A stretch of DNA of 64,000 nucleotides from an uncultured Clostridia bacterium (GCA_945910815.1 CAMDZD010000006.1:10785-74784); one strand, 5' to 3'. Positions 9,353 to 39,403 are shown, numbered from the stretch's first letter. The notes: a model not told the origin generated them from the sequence alone. Program-made: numbers and translations.

Positions 9353-9922
9353 TTATCTTTCGTATCTTGAAAGTATATTCATAGCAACTTCTTTTCTTGT
9401 CTGACGGCTGTCCATAGCCTGTTTTTCTATATAGCGATGTGCCTGAGGTTCGGTAAGCTTCAAGTATTCCATTAATGCACATTTTGCACGGTTTATGAGC
9501 CTTAATTCGTCAATCTTCGTTAAAAGCTTGACATTCTCCCTCTTAAGTCCGAGCATTCTTGCTCTTGTAGCCTGAACGAGTTTTAATGACTGATGAAATA
9601 CTGAACGGTTAAGGGGTTTTGAAACTACGCATACACCAAATTCCCCGACTTTATCGGAAACATCATCTGCAATTTCCGCACGGCATATAAGAATTATTCC
9701 GGCTGTTGAGGATTCGGACATCATAACGGCAAGTTCGTGACCAAATTCGTCCGATACAGGAGTATTTATAATGATTATTTCGTATTCTGTCGTATCTATC
9801 AGACGACGAGCCTCACTTCCACTGTTGATTGCTGTAATTTGTGAATATCCGGCATTTTTCAGTAATTGTGCAACGGCATCAATTCCCTTTTCCGAACCTG
9901 AAACTATTAATGCACGTTCCAT
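9353..9922 (-). CDS. ANTAR-domain RNA-binding antiterminator with pseudo-receiver domain (AmiR/NasT-like)
   Basis: C-terminal INRAKCALM..LTEPQAHRYIEKQAMDSRQTRKEVA ANTAR motif. The receiver fold has SG in place of the acidic pair and N53 at the phosphoacceptor position; KP is retained. Confidence 0.9.
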   Translation of the reverse strand: MERALIVSGSEKGIDAVAQLLKNAGYSQITAINSGSEARRLIDTTEYEIIIINTPVSDEFGHELAVMMSESSTAGIILICRAEIADDVSDKVGEFGVCVVSKPLNRSVFHQSLKLVQATRARMLGLKRENVKLLTKIDELRLINRAKCALMEYLKLTEPQAHRYIEKQAMDSRQTRKEVAMNILSRYER

Positions 9923-9947
9923 AAAATAGTGCCTCCGTTTTTATTGA

Positions 9948-11195
9948 TTAGATGAATGGAAAATATCTTTTTTCTTCAAAATTATCTTTTGAGATTGTAT
10001 ATTCACGCCATGTATGCGAGATGTTATTCAGAATAAGAGTTCTTGTTTTTTCGTTTAAAACTGATTTTATAAAGTCGCTTTTGCAGGCGATTTCATAAGC
10101 TTCCGCAAGAGATAAGGGAAGTTTTATTTTTGTTTCGGATTCCGGAGGGAGTTCCTCTTTGTTTTTAATTCCCTCAAAGCCTGCGGAAAGTATCAGATTA
10201 AATGCAATATAGGGATTGCATGTTGCATCGGCTGAACGTACCTCAATAGTAGGTGATTCGCCGACAGCGTTTGAAATTCTTATAAGAGGCGAATTATTGC
10301 TGAAACTCCAGTTTATGTACTGCGGAGCATATCCGACTCCGAAACGCTTGTATGAATTTGTTGAGGGATTAAGAAAAGCAGTCATTTCGGGTATTCTGTT
10401 AAGTATTCCCGCTATGAAATAATTTCCCTCGTCAGAACCGATAATTTCAGTACCGTTTTTCTTTATGCCGAGGCATATATTCAGGATACTTCCGGGCTGA
10501 TTGCCGAGAGGTCTCGGCATAAATGATGCATAAAGACCGTTCTGCGATGCTATTGACTTTACGACTGTTTTATAGTGAACCATATTGTCCGCAGCGGTAA
10601 CAGGTTCGCTTTTTTTGAAGTCAATTTCATTCTGTCCCCAGCCATGCTTATGACATGAGCTTTTTGGATTAAGTCCCATTTCCTCAAGTGAAAGACAGAT
10701 TTCACGTCTTGTATTTTCGCACTTGTCAAGAGGTGCAACATCAAGATAACCGCCATGGTCATGCGGAATTTTAGTCGGTTCGCCGTTGTCATCAAGATTG
10801 AAAAGATAAAATTCGCATTTGGTAGCAAATTCGCATGAATATCCTTCCGAATTGAGTGACATTATTTTATTGTGGAGCTGTTTTCTCAAATCTCCGGAAT
10901 ATTCCGAACCGTCAGCGTTTTGTATATTGCAGAAAAATCTGACTACTCTGCCTGACTTTGGTCTCCAGGGGAGTACGGAAAGGGTTGAAATATCCGGAAC
11001 AAGCAACAAGTCCGAACATTCTCCGGTTATTCCGGAAGCGTCAAATGATATGCCGTGTTTGAAAGCTCTCGGGAGTTCCTTCGGCATAATTGCGATATTT
11101 TTCAGATTTCCGAAAATGTCGCAGAATGTGAGACGTATGAATTTAACATCATTTTCCTCTACAAAATTCAGTACTTCAATAGGTGAAAAGCTCAT
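9948..11195 (-). CDS. Glutamine synthetase type I homologue with degenerate active site (probable pseudoenzyme)
   Basis: Aligns end to end with GSI-alpha (VKFIRLTFCDIFG, FDASG, GGYLDVAP, GQNEIDF, FMPRP, NSYKR, EVRSAD..NPY), but several metal and catalytic residues are substituted (see findings). Confidence 0.85.
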   Translation of the reverse strand: MSFSPIEVLNFVEENDVKFIRLTFCDIFGNLKNIAIMPKELPRAFKHGISFDASGITGECSDLLLVPDISTLSVLPWRPKSGRVVRFFCNIQNADGSEYSGDLRKQLHNKIMSLNSEGYSCEFATKCEFYLFNLDDNGEPTKIPHDHGGYLDVAPLDKCENTRREICLSLEEMGLNPKSSCHKHGWGQNEIDFKKSEPVTAADNMVHYKTVVKSIASQNGLYASFMPRPLGNQPGSILNICLGIKKNGTEIIGSDEGNYFIAGILNRIPEMTAFLNPSTNSYKRFGVGYAPQYINWSFSNNSPLIRISNAVGESPTIEVRSADATCNPYIAFNLILSAGFEGIKNKEELPPESETKIKLPLSLAEAYEIACKSDFIKSVLNEKTRTLILNNISHTWREYTISKDNFEEKRYFPFI

Positions 11196-11223
11196 ATTAA
11201 AAAATCCTCCATTAAATTTATTT

Positions 11224-12027
11224 TTACAGAACTTTTTTTCTTAGTCTTTTAAGCTCCGAAAGGCTAAGGCAGTTCGGAAAGCTTTCATCATCTATTCTTG
11301 CGATACATTCATCAATATCTACCCAGCAGACTTCTGAAACTTCCGACTTATCAATTTTAATGTTTTTTATGTCAACGGGCTTTGTGTATATAAATACTGA
11401 TGCAAATTCCCTGTCAGTACGTTTTCCGAGTCTTGTATTGCATATCTTGAGTGACTTTTCCATTCCGATAAATTCAAGATTTCTGGGGTCGGCAGTAATT
11501 CCGAGTTCTTCCTGAAGCTCCCTTACTGCTGAATATCTTGATTCCTCACCGGCTGATGTGTGGCCTGCTGATGATACGTCATAGAAATCCGGAAAGAATA
11601 ATTTTTCCTTTGAACGTTTCTGCAAAAGTACGTATATTGACATATCAACACGGCGGATAATCCATATATGCGATGTAAGATGACCGTCTCCGTCACGATG
11701 TACGAGTGAACGTGGTTTTATACGGTTTGTAACATGTTCGTTTTCGTCTACTATATTCAGAAATTCCTCGTCATATACTGAAAAAGAAAAATTACTGTTT
11801 TTCTCCGAAACTTTATAGAATATATCAAGTATGCCGTCAATAGTGCTGTTGCTTATATTCTCATTGGAAATATATATATCAGCATTAAGTGATTTTATTT
11901 CATTAAGACAATCATAGAGTGCGTCAAGATTTTTTCCGTAATATTCGGGAAATCCAAGTTTTTCTGCAAGTTCCTTATGCAGTTCCGCCGGTGAAAAGCG
12001 TCTGCTCAGAAAAATTTCAGTATCCAT
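11224..12027 (-). CDS. Barstar-like RNase inhibitor fused to a Nudix/IDI-type hydrolase
   Basis: N-terminal LHKELAEKLGFPEYYGKNLDALYDCL (barstar signature); C-terminal LLQKRS..K..FP..YDVSSAGH..AGEE...AVRELQEELGI (Nudix box). Confidence 0.85.
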   Translation of the reverse strand: MDTEIFLSRRFSPAELHKELAEKLGFPEYYGKNLDALYDCLNEIKSLNADIYISNENISNSTIDGILDIFYKVSEKNSNFSFSVYDEEFLNIVDENEHVTNRIKPRSLVHRDGDGHLTSHIWIIRRVDMSIYVLLQKRSKEKLFFPDFYDVSSAGHTSAGEESRYSAVRELQEELGITADPRNLEFIGMEKSLKICNTRLGKRTDREFASVFIYTKPVDIKNIKIDKSEVSEVCWVDIDECIARIDDESFPNCLSLSELKRLRKKVL

Positions 12028-12053
12028 AAAAAAAGCTCCTTTAAACTTTGTAA

Positions 12054-12656
12054 TTAATATAGCTGTTCAAAAGTCTGATAATGGTCATTTGTATAGAAAA
12101 TAAGACCGTCATTTGAAAATATAATGCGTTCAGCACCTCTGAAACCGCCGTTATAGTTCACATCACATTCTGTCCATATTCTTCCTTCGGAATCGGGGAG
12201 AAGTCCCTCATAGTTTCCGAATCTGTCTCCGCCTATGCTCATACCGTCAGCGACTTCCCATAAATTGCCCTTTTTGCTGTCCCAGCCGAGTGCAATTGCA
12301 TCATCTTTTTTGATGAAATTATGTGGAAGTGTTCCGAATGTATGTATATATTCCGCAACATCTTCGGGAGTGGTATAGCTACCGGATTCGAGTATAATAT
12401 TATTGTCTGCCGTTATTGGTTCTGTTTCCGTTTCAGAATTATAATAACTGGTATCGGGTTTAGCGGAAGTGATAATTTCAGTTTCTTCGGAATATTCTTC
12501 CGTATCATTATCAGACTGGGGAATTTCTGAAATTTCACTTTCTGAAACAATGCTTTCTTCCGGAATAAATTCAAATGCATTGTCTTTAAGTACGATTCCG
12601 AGAACTATCAGAATTATCATACCGGCTATACTTAAAAATATTTTTTTGTTTTTCAA
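12054..12656 (-). CDS. Membrane-anchored barnase-like guanyl-specific ribonuclease
   Basis: Start refined to TTG 12656 (RBS AAAGGAGA). N-terminal TM, acidic S/E/T linker, barnase-like domain (LPHNFIKK, SIGGDRFGN, WTECDVNY, GFRGAERI, DHYQTF) with catalytic Glu and His retained. Confidence 0.92.
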   Translation of the reverse strand: MKNKKIFLSIAGMIILIVLGIVLKDNAFEFIPEESIVSESEISEIPQSDNDTEEYSEETEIITSAKPDTSYYNSETETEPITADNNIILESGSYTTPEDVAEYIHTFGTLPHNFIKKDDAIALGWDSKKGNLWEVADGMSIGGDRFGNYEGLLPDSEGRIWTECDVNYNGGFRGAERIIFSNDGLIFYTNDHYQTFEQLY

Positions 12657-12682
12657 GTCAAATCTCCTTTCCTGCACAATCA

Positions 12683-12711
12683 ATTATATACCCACTTTAA
12701 TGAAATGTCAA
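12683..12711 (-). promoter_or_regulatory. Consensus sigma-A promoter for the RNase / barstar-Nudix / GS-like / ANTAR operon
   Basis: Minus strand TTGACA (12711-12706) - 17 bp - TATAAT (12688-12683). Confidence 0.85.
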
Positions 12712-12775: not shown

Positions 12776-14518
12776 TTAATAGTCATCGCCCTGAAGTGCA
12801 TCATAGCCCTGCTCACCTGTACGAACTTTAACAACGTTTTCAACGTCATAGATGAACATTTTTCCGTCGCCGATATTTCCTGTATAGAGAGCCTCTTTTG
12901 ATGCCTCAATAACCTTTTCAACCGGTATCTTTGATACGACAGCCTCAACCTTTACCTTTGGAAGAAGTGTTGATGCCTCATCTTTAACACCACGGTAATA
13001 TACATCGTGACCTTTCTGTGTGCCGTATCCGAGAACCTGTGTTACTGTAATACCCTTTACGCCAACCTCCATAAGCTTCTGCTGTAAAGCCTCAAGCTTA
13101 TTCTGCTTGCATATGATACTGATTTTTGTGAGCTTTGCCTCTGTTCCGGAAGTTTCGGAAACTTTCTTGACAGCGGGAGCTTCAACGGGAATAGGCGGTT
13201 CAGGAACTTCAATTCCAGCCTTGTGAGCCTGCTTATCCATCTGCTTGATTGAATCAATAGACGGCATAAAGTCTGCATATGATGATGGAAGATTATGTTC
13301 AGTAGCGTCAAGACCGATGATTTCTTCTTCAGCTGATGCTCTGAGTCCGATTGTAGCCTTGATTACAAGGAATGTAATTGTAATTGTAACTGCTGTCCAC
13401 GCACCTACTGTAAAGATTCCGGCAAGCTGTTTGCCGAGGAGACCAAAACCACCGCCATAGAATAAACCGTTAAGAGTGTTTGAAGGTGCGGAATCTGTTG
13501 CAAAGAGACCTACTGCTATTGTACCCCATATACCGTTCATCATGTGAACTGCAACTGCACCTACCGGGTCATCTATATGGAGAACATAGTCAAGGAGCCA
13601 TACGCCGAATGGTACAAGCAGACCTGAAACGATACCAACAAATATTGCACCGACAGAGTTCATAACATCACAGCCTGCTGTTATACCTACAAGACCTGCA
13701 AGTGATGCGTTAAGACACATTGAAACATCAGGTTTGCCGTATTTAAGCCATGTGAAAATCATACATACAAAAGTTGCAACGGCAGGAGCGATTGTAGTTG
13801 TTACGAAAATTGAGCCAAGCTGTGGGATTGATGTTGCAGCTGCACCGTTGAATCCGTACCAGCCAAACCAGAGTATAAAACAGCCTAATGCACCAAGTGT
13901 AAGTGAATGTCCGGGGATTGCTTTTACTTTTATTACCTTGCCGTCTTTGTCAGTTTTGAATTTTCCTATACGTGGGCCAAGGATTTTTGCACCGATAAGT
14001 GCTGAAATACCGCCTACCATATGAATTGCACATGAACCTGCGAAATCGTGGAATCCCCATTGAGCAAGCCAGCCACCGCCCCAAATCCAGTGAGCCTCGA
14101 TAGGATAAATAAGTGCGGAAATTACTGATGAATATATACAATATGAAATGAATTTCGTTCTTTCTGCCATTGCACCTGATACTATTGTAGCAGTTGTAGC
14201 ACAGAATACAAGGTTAAAAACAAAACTTGACCAGTCGAAATTCTGATAATCTGTAATAATATCGAATCCGGGCTTGCCGAGAAGTCCGGCAACGTCCTCG
14301 CCTAAAAGAAGTCCGAAGCCTATAAGTATAAATACTACTGTACCTATGCAGAAATCCATAAGGTTTTTCATTATGATATTTCCGGCATTTTTAGCTCTTG
14401 TGAAACCGGTTTCAACCATTGCAAATCCGCACTGCATAAAGAATACAAGTGCTGCACCAATCAGAAACCATACACCGAATACTTCACCCGATACAGCTTC
14501 CATAATATTTTCATTCAT
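12776..14518 (-). CDS. amtB: Ammonium transporter (Amt) fused to a C-terminal PII (GlnK/GlnB-like) domain
   Basis: Amt motifs FMQCGFAMVETG, HWIWGGGWL, HDFAGS..IH, WFGWYGFNG, DDPVGAVAVH. Pro-rich linker, then PII motifs VKGITV..V.GYGTQKG...YRG, LPKVKVE, TGNIGDGKMF. Confidence 0.95.
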   Translation of the reverse strand: MNENIMEAVSGEVFGVWFLIGAALVFFMQCGFAMVETGFTRAKNAGNIIMKNLMDFCIGTVVFILIGFGLLLGEDVAGLLGKPGFDIITDYQNFDWSSFVFNLVFCATTATIVSGAMAERTKFISYCIYSSVISALIYPIEAHWIWGGGWLAQWGFHDFAGSCAIHMVGGISALIGAKILGPRIGKFKTDKDGKVIKVKAIPGHSLTLGALGCFILWFGWYGFNGAAATSIPQLGSIFVTTTIAPAVATFVCMIFTWLKYGKPDVSMCLNASLAGLVGITAGCDVMNSVGAIFVGIVSGLLVPFGVWLLDYVLHIDDPVGAVAVHMMNGIWGTIAVGLFATDSAPSNTLNGLFYGGGFGLLGKQLAGIFTVGAWTAVTITITFLVIKATIGLRASAEEEIIGLDATEHNLPSSYADFMPSIDSIKQMDKQAHKAGIEVPEPPIPVEAPAVKKVSETSGTEAKLTKISIICKQNKLEALQQKLMEVGVKGITVTQVLGYGTQKGHDVYYRGVKDEASTLLPKVKVEAVVSKIPVEKVIEASKEALYTGNIGDGKMFIYDVENVVKVRTGEQGYDALQGDDY

Positions 14519-14589
14519 AAAAAATCACCCTTTGCTTACTGATTTTGTCAAAACTGCTTTGAATTATTTTTAAGGAGGTACCTTCCCTG

Positions 14590-14648
14590 AAAATAATAAA
14601 AAGATGCCGAAAAGAAGTTTTCTTCAAACCCTTTTCAGCACCTTTGCT
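14590..14648 (-). promoter_or_regulatory. Leader attenuator: ANTAR-type hexaloop hairpin overlapping an intrinsic terminator
   Basis: Minus strand AGC-AAAGGT-GCT hairpin (14648-14637). Its loop and 3' side form the 5' arm of a ~20-bp stem (14645-14600) followed by TTTTTATTATTTT. Confidence 0.75.
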
Positions 14649-14660
14649 GTCTATGGTTAT

Positions 14661-14689
14661 ATTATATTCCCAAAAGGAAAAAAAGTCAA
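14661..14689 (-). promoter_or_regulatory. Sigma-A promoter of amt-PII
   Basis: Minus strand TTGACT (14689-14684) - 17 bp - TATAAT (14666-14661). Confidence 0.85.
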
Positions 14690-37465: not shown

Positions 37466-39403
37466 CTATTTGTTTCCGGATTTTTTCAGATATTTTGACT
37501 GTTTCTTTTTCTTTTTCTTTTCATACATTATATGGTCTGCAATTGTGACAAGCTGGAAAATCTGTGAATCCTCATCGGGAATTTGTATATAGTGACCTAT
37601 ACTTGCCGTAAGTGTATATTCCTGACTGAGCCTGTCGGATTCTGCCTTTATATTTCTGTGTATTTTTTCGGTAAGAATAACGGCATCTTCTTCGGAATAT
37701 TCAGCTCCGAATACAATAAATTCATCTCCTCCGAAACGGCAGTATATTTCACCGTTTGTACAGGATTTTTTAATAGCCTCGGCAATGGCATGTATAGCGG
37801 AGTCACCTGATTTATGACCGTAATTGTCATTTATATGCTTGAGATTGTCCATATCTATGAACATCAGCATAACCGGCAGATGATTGCTTATGCAGTAGCT
37901 GAAAAGCTCGGAGGAATTGTTCTTAAAGCCGTTTCTGTTATAAATTCCTGAAAGCGTATCGACAGTATAAAGACAGTTCAGCTTTTTGACGGCATTGTCA
38001 AGACAGCCTATTTTACGGATATTTTCGAGGGAACTGCATATAGTAATGCTCCAGGTCTGAAACATTGAAGTTTTCATAGGGAAATCACTGTTCATTATTG
38101 CAAGATAGCCGAGACATCTTTCACGGAAATGCAGTGGCACAAAGTAATATATTTTGTTTCTGTCCGTACTGCTGAACATATCGGGAACAATATATTTTGA
38201 TTCAAACGATTCAAGTGACGAAAACCGTCCGTTTCTGAAAAGGCACGGGACAGTTACATTTTTCGTGTATCCTTCAACAGTAAAGTTATTATTAAGATGA
38301 AAATTATAATTATCGCTGTCATCAATATCGCTGTTCCAGTTATCGCAGAGACAGAGATAAAATTCCTCCGCCTTGATTTCATTTATAAAGGGCTTGAGCT
38401 TTTCGATATATTCCTCAAAGCTGTCGCAGTCGATAAGCTTGCAGGACATTCTGTTTATCATCGAACGGGAAACGGAATTGTTTTCAATCTTTTTATAGTT
38501 ATGCTTTTTAAAGCTTTCGGGAGTTTCGGAATTATAGCTTTCACAGCCACAGCTCTGGGTAAATCTCGGTTTCATATCAAGAATGAAACTTCTTTCATTT
38601 TTTCTGCCGTTTATATGTTCAAAAAGGAGCTTGCAGGAAAGTATTCCTGATTCCGCAAGCGGTCTCTGAACGGAAGTGAGTTCAGGGGAATAGTTTCTTG
38701 CATCATATATATTGTCGAAACCGGAAAAGCATACATCATCGGGAATTTTGATGTTGTTTTCTTCAAAGACATTCATTGCGGATAATGCCATAACATCATT
38801 TGCAGATATTACCGCATCGGGCAGGGAAAGTCCCGATTCAAGAAAGTATTCCGAAGCCTGACGACCGCTCATTGCACGGAAATCCCCGAAATATACACGT
38901 CTTTCATCAAAGGGAAGGCTGTATTTTTCAAGAACGTTCCGGAATGCCCTGTATCTCTGAACGCTTTCAGGATTATTCTGAGGGCCTGATATATAGTTGA
39001 ACGTTCTGAATTTATGGTGAACTATCAAATGTTCGACAATCTTTTTCATAGCAGATGAATTGTCTATTCCGATATGATAAAATTCCGGTATGTCACGGTC
39101 AATGCTTACAGCAGGTATTCCGGCATTTTTTATTCTTGATATTATACTGTCTGCAACGTATGACGATGAAATTGTATTTGCAAGCAGAATTGCTCCGTCA
39201 AATTCCGAAAAATCAGGTAGCGAAAATATATTATATTCTCCGGTATCGTGTTTTGAATCTTCCATAATTCCGCCGAATGCGATAAAATGTGCAAGATTGA
39301 TTCTGTGTTCACGTGCATACTTCTGAATACCCTCAAGAATACAGCTCTGATAATATTCATCGATACCCGAAACTATAACGGCAATATTTATATATTTTTC
39401 CAA
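37466..39403 (-). CDS. Diguanylate cyclase with N-terminal LacI/periplasmic-binding-protein-like sensor domain
   Basis: Start likely TTG 39403. N-terminal FDGAILL, IPAVSID, GIDNSSAM, AVISANDVMA, IPDDVCFSGFD (LacI-type ligand domain, no HTH); C-terminal DMDNLKHINDNYGHKSGD and RFGGDEF. Confidence 0.88.
   Translation of the reverse strand: MEKYINIAVIVSGIDEYYQSCILEGIQKYAREHRINLAHFIAFGGIMEDSKHDTGEYNIFSLPDFSEFDGAILLANTISSSYVADSIISRIKNAGIPAVSIDRDIPEFYHIGIDNSSAMKKIVEHLIVHHKFRTFNYISGPQNNPESVQRYRAFRNVLEKYSLPFDERRVYFGDFRAMSGRQASEYFLESGLSLPDAVISANDVMALSAMNVFEENNIKIPDDVCFSGFDNIYDARNYSPELTSVQRPLAESGILSCKLLFEHINGRKNERSFILDMKPRFTQSCGCESYNSETPESFKKHNYKKIENNSVSRSMINRMSCKLIDCDSFEEYIEKLKPFINEIKAEEFYLCLCDNWNSDIDDSDNYNFHLNNNFTVEGYTKNVTVPCLFRNGRFSSLESFESKYIVPDMFSSTDRNKIYYFVPLHFRERCLGYLAIMNSDFPMKTSMFQTWSITICSSLENIRKIGCLDNAVKKLNCLYTVDTLSGIYNRNGFKNNSSELFSYCISNHLPVMLMFIDMDNLKHINDNYGHKSGDSAIHAIAEAIKKSCTNGEIYCRFGGDEFIVFGAEYSEEDAVILTEKIHRNIKAESDRLSQEYTLTASIGHYIQIPDEDSQIFQLVTIADHIMYEKKKKKKQSKYLKKSGNK

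Follow-up and report, generated by a model that had tools for sequence, protein, structure and literature searches.

The leader of the amt-PII gene raises the question of how a transcript that meets an intrinsic terminator shortly after it has begun is carried through into an ammonium transporter gene, and by what. The gene lies on the minus strand of a 64,000-nucleotide stretch of DNA from an uncultured gut Clostridia bacterium of the Ruminococcus type (hereafter the window), and coordinates are counted from the first letter of that stretch. From the sequence we consider it likely that the leader carries a protein-dependent nitrogen attenuator of the ANTAR class, in a single-hairpin variant placed before amt-PII.

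The regulated gene encodes an ammonium transporter-PII fusion of 580 aa (amt-PII, 12776-14518, minus strand), with Pfam matches to Ammonium_transp (E 7e-120) and P-II (E 3.5e-23), and is preceded by the ribosome-binding site AAAGGGUGA at 14533-14525. Upstream of it is a sigma-70-type promoter (14661-14689, minus strand), which comprises TTGACT (14689-14684), a 17-nt spacer and TATAAT (14666-14661), and which matched 11 of 12 consensus positions in a consensus scan. This is the promoter that the initial annotation had read at this place, and from it transcription is predicted to start near 14654-14652. About 11 nt past the end of the -10 box begins a small hairpin, CAGC-[AAAGGU]-GCUG (14636-14649, minus strand), whose 5' strand runs C14649, A, G, C14646, whose loop runs A14645, A, A, G, G, U14640, and whose 3' strand runs G14639, C, U, G14636. 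The initial annotation had given this hairpin a 3-bp stem (AGC/GCU) at the same coordinates; the stem lengthens to 4 bp with a C-G closing pair, and loop residues A1 and G4 were correctly called. A short stem thus displays a hexaloop with A1 and G4 (14645-14640), and the loop fits the class consensus AANGRN. By itself the small hairpin has a predicted energy of -4.4 kcal/mol (RNAfold). We presume it to be the binding site for the ANTAR protein of this genome.

The intrinsic terminator stem-loop that overlaps this hairpin (14600-14645, minus strand) was folded by RNAfold into 20 pairs with one bulge, its arms AAAGGUGCUGAAAAGGGUUU (14645-14626) and AAACUUCUUUUCGGCAUCUUU (14620-14600) being joined by the loop GAAGA, at -22.1 to -22.7 kcal/mol. 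It is followed by the U-rich tract UUAUUAUUUU (14590-14599, minus strand), which doubles as the 5' arm of the next hairpin, and the z-score of the amt-PII leader against shuffled sequences is -4.08. The end of the U-tract lies 72 nt from the amt-PII ATG (14518), so that the terminator of about 20 bp, with one bulge and a U-rich tract, previously placed some 70 nt ahead of the start codon, was recovered in all its parts. Its 5' arm starts at position 1 of the small-hairpin loop and takes in the 3' strand of that hairpin; the ANTAR-type hairpin therefore shares its 3' half with the terminator, and in relatives the offset between the two ranges from 0 to 4. Because the loop and 3' strand of the small hairpin lie within the terminator 5' arm, the two structures are mutually exclusive, as had been proposed, and the terminator is the default. 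When the small hairpin was enforced in RNAfold, a weaker AU-rich alternative hairpin still ended at the U-tract (-12.8 kcal/mol in total), which means that energy alone does not guarantee read-through. Given this alternative, a bound protein may have to cover more than 14 nt.

A second conserved hairpin is present in the predicted fold of the leader at 14563-14597 (minus strand; AUUAUUUU-C-AGGGA-[AGGUACC]-UCCUU-AAAAAUAAU). Among the three genomes of the window's clade the apical 15 nt (CAGGGAAGGTACCTC) do not differ, while the outer stem covaries. The 5' arm is the U-tract of the terminator, the 3' arm ACCUCCUU is similar to the anti-Shine-Dalgarno end of 16S rRNA, and no U-tract follows; the hairpin stands where other species of the genus have a second attenuator module. 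It is not a terminator. It is probably not an ANTAR site either, judged by its bases: as a candidate second site it would display GG-[AAGGUA]-CC, closed by G-C and not by the invariant C-G pair, with no terminator after it. The apical loop of the terminator was also considered as a second ANTAR loop and was rejected, since its length and sequence differ among relatives. Curated covariance models gave nothing that would place the leader in a riboswitch or other Rfam cis-regulatory family: the whole window had no Rfam matches at the gathering threshold, and the leader at E<=10 had chance-level matches only, for example to snoRNA families.

Hairpins with an A..G hexaloop are common under a loose definition (approximately 2400 in the genome). 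An unbiased scan of the 2.54-Mb genome for hexaloop hairpins of any loop sequence in which a strong terminator begins at the loop returned only 24 cases, of which three had AANG loops where about 0.4 would be expected. All three lie downstream of consensus promoters and upstream of nitrogen-linked genes, and the amt-PII site is the most stable overlap of its kind in the genome. A fourth site surfaced only with slightly relaxed terminator rules. The four modules, each of which sits just past a promoter, are CAGC-AAAGGU-GCUG before amt-PII, AUUGAAAC-AAUGGC-GUUUCGGU before glnN (type III glutamine synthetase), ACGC-AAAGAG-GCGU before an Lrp/AsnC regulator gene, and AAGC-AAAGGU-GCUU before an operon encoding CP_ATPgrasp, Alpha-E, transglutaminase and AstE proteins. 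The other sites were found only through this structure-based scan; a blastn search of the genome for paralogues of the leader gave chance 13-16-mers in coding regions and nothing else. Occurrence of the same one-hairpin module at amt-PII, glnN, Lrp/AsnC and the ATP-grasp operon points to a small nitrogen regulon. Such a scan near the glutamate and glutamine genes had been suggested at the outset, and its outcome was divided: a module is present at glnN, none is present upstream of gltB in this genome, and the gdh hairpin instead displays the start codon.

The CP_ATPgrasp/Alpha-E/transglutaminase/AstE-AspA operon (L063:619-4492; contig C5 of the window's genome, G000, minus strand) carries the attenuator in eight of the nine genomes in which it occurs, which suggests that this widespread ATP-grasp/Alpha-E/transglutaminase operon has a function linked to nitrogen.

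Comparison with related genomes showed that the module is a conserved feature of these leaders, being present in 25 of 28 amt-PII leaders (relatives together with the window itself). Leaders from the same genus mostly have two modules in series, each with its own terminator, in the order CAGC-AAGGGA-GCUG and then CAUACAC-AAAGGG-GUGUAUG, and the position of the promoter is kept; in a genome from another family the amt-PII module is CGGC-AAAGAC-GCCG. Orthologous leaders of glnN and the ATP-grasp operon have the module with stems such as GAAC/GUUC, ACAGC/GCUGU and AGGC/GCUU, and loop position 3 may be any base. The glnN leaders of other families have AAGGC-AAGGAC-GUCUU, CGGC-AAAGGC-GCCG and others, often in tandem, and the Lrp leader of a more distant species has GCGC-AAAGUG-GCGC. 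Where the stems are altered in orthologous leaders they stay complementary, G-U pairs included. The module scan demanded at least three pairs and G4, so that stem pairing and G4 are in part given by construction, but it did not demand A1, A2, a purine at position 5 or the closing pair; in the 35 modules pooled, A1 was found in 34, A2 and G4 in all 35, position 5 was a purine, and every one of 11 stem types pairs. Cells changed on both sides of the stem numbered 33, whereas shuffled controls gave 10.5, and the pairing was lost when the partner strand was slid along.

A wider set of 80 amt-PII loci was drawn from named records of Ruminococcus flavefaciens, Lachnospiraceae, Oscillospiraceae, Eubacterium and some Treponema-labelled bins. 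It contained 67 modules with AANG loops and 28 with other loops, and the closing pair, which was not a requirement of the scan, is C-G in all 67 of the former. In 33 of these 67 modules a TTGAnn-N16-18-TAnnnT promoter ends 5-15 nt (mostly 10-11) ahead of the stem. Near-invariance of A1, A2, G4 and the C-G closing pair, covariation of the stems and equality with the GnfR consensus (see below) support the reading of the hairpin as an ANTAR-type hexaloop that the initial annotation had put forward.

Two further observations concern the distribution of the module. Species of the same genus mostly have two serial amt-PII modules together with two ANTAR genes, often with glnN right after amt (L004-L024), and the window's clade has one amt-PII module and one ANTAR gene; a rule of one module per ANTAR paralogue across the genus was considered and rejected, since two genomes depart from it. 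Contigs labelled Alistipes, Bacteroides or Treponema (L132, L144, L151, L152, L178, L190, L191, L202) also carry nearly identical amt-PII genes preceded by this attenuator, owing either to horizontal transfer or to mis-binning of the metagenome contigs.

The genome encodes a single candidate to read the hairpin. A REC-like/ANTAR protein of 189 aa (9353-9922, minus strand; Pfam ANTAR, E 3.6e-16) is the sole ANTAR match in the 2.54-Mb genome, its gene is nearby, 3 kb downstream of the attenuator, and it is the presumed antiterminator. Residues K149, E160 and Y164 of EutV hold G4, which is flipped out from the hexaloop (PMC8934654). An alignment with EutV, Rv1626, NasR and AmiR showed that the equivalents of K149 and E160 are kept and that Y164 is replaced by His, as it is in AmiR. 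The phospho-acceptor Asp of the receiver is Asn here (IIINTP) and is N, C, G, Y or V in most orthologues. Immediately upstream, on the same strand and 25 nt away, is the gene for a glutamine-synthetase (GS)-like protein of 415 aa (9948-11195, minus strand; Pfam Gln-synt_C and Gln-synt_N), and the two genes are adjacent in 27 of 29 relatives' loci. Aligned with Bacillus subtilis GS (4LNF), the GS-like protein has the changes E132K, E189K, H245N and R316N and lacks the flap Glu. It is presumed to be a nitrogen sensor and the partner of the ANTAR protein.

The genes that follow amt-PII are arranged, in order, as the amt-PII terminator, a promoter at 12711-12683, a barnase-like RNase gene, a barstar-NUDIX fusion, the GS-like gene and the ANTAR gene. 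The promoter is a perfect TTGACA-N17-TATAAT with a short leader, and no attenuator is found before this sensor operon, so the sensor genes look constitutively expressed. The membrane-anchored barnase-like RNase and the barstar-NUDIX protein that precede the GS-like and ANTAR genes (9353-12711, minus strand; gaps of 25-28 nt) make an odd linkage of an RNase/inhibitor pair to sensor genes.

The glutamate dehydrogenase gene, gdh, carries a further hairpin with the C[AANGRN]G signature of ANTAR sites, GGUUUUUUAAC-[AAUGGC]-GUUAAAAAAUC, which has 11 bp and holds the start codon in its loop (contig C10 of G000, 39095-39122, minus strand; L205:2829-2856). No base of it differs among the 22 same-genus genomes examined, even at synonymous sites within codons 2-7, although the sequence ahead of it and that from codon 8 on do differ; outside the genus the hairpin is absent. 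Such invariance leaves no covariation to be seen, and a genome that lacks an ANTAR match retains the hairpin. Translation of gdh may be repressed by the same ANTAR protein through this start-codon hairpin.

The best surviving alternative is that the switch is real but is read by something other than an ANTAR protein, be it a different protein that binds RNA, a small RNA, or a direct metabolite or kinetic effect. The genes for the barnase-like RNase and the barstar-NUDIX fusion share the sensor operon, and the gdh hairpin persists in the ANTAR-negative genome just mentioned, both of which give this explanation some footing. On the other side, a 14-nt hairpin is too small for a ligand pocket and matches no Rfam family, and the A1/G4 loop rules together with identity to the GnfR site indicate an ANTAR protein specifically. 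The distribution of the module also argues against a different reader, as among the genomes sampled it was seen only where an ANTAR gene exists. Since the sampled genomes are mutually related, the co-occurrence counts are supportive and do not amount to a statistical test: an ANTAR gene is present in 37 of the 37 relatives that have amt-PII; a module precedes glnN in none of eight ANTAR-negative genomes, compared with five of twelve ANTAR-positive genomes from the same batch (the other seven having no module before the glnN copy examined); and the Lrp module is missing from both orthologue-bearing genomes without an ANTAR match. We regard a non-ANTAR reader as improbable.

Still less probable, and in our view quite unlikely, is a canonical two-hairpin ANTAR leader whose true start lies further upstream and whose P1 hairpin was missed. 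The case for it comes from the literature, in which the dual hairpin is the defined ANTAR substrate; a single stem-loop bound EutV poorly and both hairpins were required in vivo (PMC3369931), so that a one-hairpin antiterminator runs counter to the EutV model. The leaders themselves speak against a second hairpin. Tandem P1 and P2 hairpins with a short linker were found at none of the four sites in the genome, where no other A1/G4 hexaloop hairpin occurs within 90 nt upstream, and among the 67 AANG modules such a hairpin lies within 45 nt upstream in only 10, where it is mostly the -35 box itself (ATTGAC), and is absent from the other 57. At amt-PII no other A1/G4 hexaloop hairpin fits between the -10 box and the stem, which bears out the caveat of the initial annotation that this would be a single-hairpin variant. 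The consensus promoters that end 5-15 nt before the stem in 33 modules tell against an upstream start in the same way: the promoter ends just before the stem and the hairpin is transcribed first, so that P1 would have no space. Nor do relatives conserve the sequence upstream of the promoter. In the crystal structure of EutV the dimer contacts one hexaloop with G4 stacked on Tyr164, and Walshe et al. (2022) redefined the minimal motif accordingly and called for a search for single-hexaloop sites (PMC8934654).

Two other explanations deserve very little credence. One sees here no more than a common leader terminator or a transcriptional insulator, with the upstream CAGC complementary by chance. 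It draws on the abundance of 3-4-bp hairpins with an A..G hexaloop noted above, but the loop is constant at positions 1, 2 and 4, as is the C-G closing pair, while the 5' strand covaries, at four loci and in several families, and the AANG overlaps are enriched over expectation and associated with nitrogen genes. The other makes the CAGC-N6-GCTG inverted repeat a DNA operator for a dimeric transcription factor at the start site, and the repeat does span roughly +3 to +19 of a strong promoter, where repressors typically sit. It is rejected because homologous sites use G-U pairs (AAGGC/GTCTT, GGCAC/GTGTT) that are non-palindromic as DNA, and the conserved loop is asymmetric and strand-specific while the stem sequences vary freely.

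Returning to the ANTAR-class attenuator, we propose the following mechanism. Transcription would start a few bases past TATAAT, and the first ~20 nt of RNA would form the weak 4-bp hairpin displaying AAAGGU on its C-G closing pair. By default and unaided, the loop and 3' strand of this hairpin would pair downstream to form the 20-bp terminator, and transcription would stop about 70 nt before amt-PII. Free ANTAR protein, as a dimer, would clamp the 5'-terminal hexaloop hairpin, and so withhold the GC-rich base of the terminator beside the U-tract and allow read-through into amt-PII. The same module would turn on glnN, the Lrp/AsnC gene and the ATP-grasp/transglutaminase operon. Binding of the amt-PII hairpin by the ANTAR protein is itself a presumption drawn from the conserved loop and stem. 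The GS-like sensor would sequester or release the ANTAR protein according to nitrogen status, following the logic of AmiC/AmiR or NasS/NasT; its role as sensor partner is suggested by the pairing of the genes. A pseudo-receiver next to a conserved GS pseudoenzyme makes sequestration and release likelier than phosphorylation, and control of this kind is the most likely arrangement. As the targets include amt and GSIII, we infer that the ANTAR protein is released under nitrogen limitation.

A joint reading would go further: that a single 5'-terminal hexaloop suffices across gut Clostridia, that the GS pseudoenzyme does the signalling, and that the same protein shuts off gdh. We put this forward tentatively and think it rather less likely to hold in full than to fail in some part. 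If it were true, the 'obligatory' P1 hairpin of the EutV model would not be general, and one regulator would activate high-affinity ammonium assimilation while repressing the low-affinity route.

Antitermination of nitrogen genes by ANTAR proteins is already established, and the question on which this locus bears is how much RNA the protein needs. Genetic analysis of EutV indicated two hairpins and the crystal structure shows a dimer touching one (PMC3369931, PMC8934654). The amt-PII leader and its relatives are natural candidates for single-hexaloop sites associated with a terminator, and their consensus, C[AANGRN]G, is sharply defined and lies 10-11 nt past the -10 box. Three things are distinctive here: a layout with strictly one hairpin at the 5' terminus, the wide occurrence of that layout in gut Clostridia, and the GS-like partner, a pseudoenzyme for which a role is proposed. 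To our knowledge, no nitrogen regulator has so far been defined for Ruminococcus or fibre-degrading gut Clostridia, and the arrangement described here provides a working model of nitrogen control for Ruminococcus and other members of this group.

Among known systems, AmiC/AmiR and NasS/NasT each comprise a ligand-sensor protein that sequesters an ANTAR protein. The system described here resembles them in having an unphosphorylated pseudo-receiver ANTAR protein and an adjacent, separately encoded sensor protein, and has in common with AmiR the His at the position that stacks on G4. The partner differs, having a GS fold and not that of a periplasmic-binding protein, and its interaction with the ANTAR protein is suggested by gene pairing. 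A closer genetic parallel is glnA-nitR of Clostridium saccharobutylicum, for which NitR was proposed to antiterminate nitrogen-assimilation genes under nitrogen limitation (Stutz et al. 2007, as cited in PMC6316151). In both clostridial hosts the ANTAR gene is directly downstream of a GS-family gene; in C. saccharobutylicum the upstream gene is taken as a working GS, whereas here key catalytic residues are lost and the GS under regulation is GSIII.

In the definition of Ramesh et al. (2012), an ANTAR substrate has two hexaloop hairpins, of which the second overlaps a terminator (PMC3369931). Most of the many sites that they predicted are at nitrogen genes, amt in C. thermocellum and PII in Ethanoligenens among them (Table S2, PMC3369931), and Ruminococcus is absent from the list (PMC3369931). 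The element described here has in common with the EutV, NasR and AmiR substrates an A1/G4 hexaloop on a short stem that overlaps the 5' arm of a terminator as P2 does, and the G4-contacting residues of the ANTAR three-helix domain are conserved in kind. It differs in lacking P1, in that 3-5 nt separate the single hexaloop hairpin from the predicted RNA 5' end, and in having A2 and the C-G pair as additional invariants. The paired hairpins of relatives are likewise distinct from the dual motif, since each has its own terminator and they are thus tandem attenuators.

The closest match to the amt-PII element is the GnfK/GnfR system of Geobacter sulfurreducens, through which nitrogen-fixation genes are antiterminated. 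Ueki and Lovley (2010) showed that GnfR binds RNA containing CAGGCAAGGGCGCC, and a conserved CAGGCAANGGCGCC, which reads as GGC-[AANGGC]-GCC, overlaps terminators before nifH, glnK and amtB; the site is backed by an RNA-binding assay and by deletion mutants (PMC2995071). The two systems have the same loop consensus, AANGRN, on a C-G closing pair, at the 5' side of leader terminators in a nitrogen regulon, and as a REC-type ANTAR protein prevents premature termination there, so we propose that one would here. The class consensus in our set is NNNC-[AANGRN]-GNNN, and several relatives, with AGGC-AAAGGC-GUCU or CGGC-AAAGGC-GCCG, have elements of the GnfR type. The systems differ in that GnfR is a response regulator that needs phosphorylation by the histidine kinase GnfK, whereas the protein here has no acceptor Asp and has a GS-like neighbour and not a kinase, and in that the Geobacter promoters are of the RpoN -24/-12 type, whereas those here are sigma-70-type and place the hairpin at the RNA 5' end. 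The host here is a Firmicute, and the targets are the amt-PII fusion, GSIII, Lrp and the ATP-grasp operon. The dual-hairpin, phosphorelay and RpoN features are thus absent, but the consensus equals that of the GnfR site, from which we infer that the element works in the manner of a GnfR/ANTAR attenuator.
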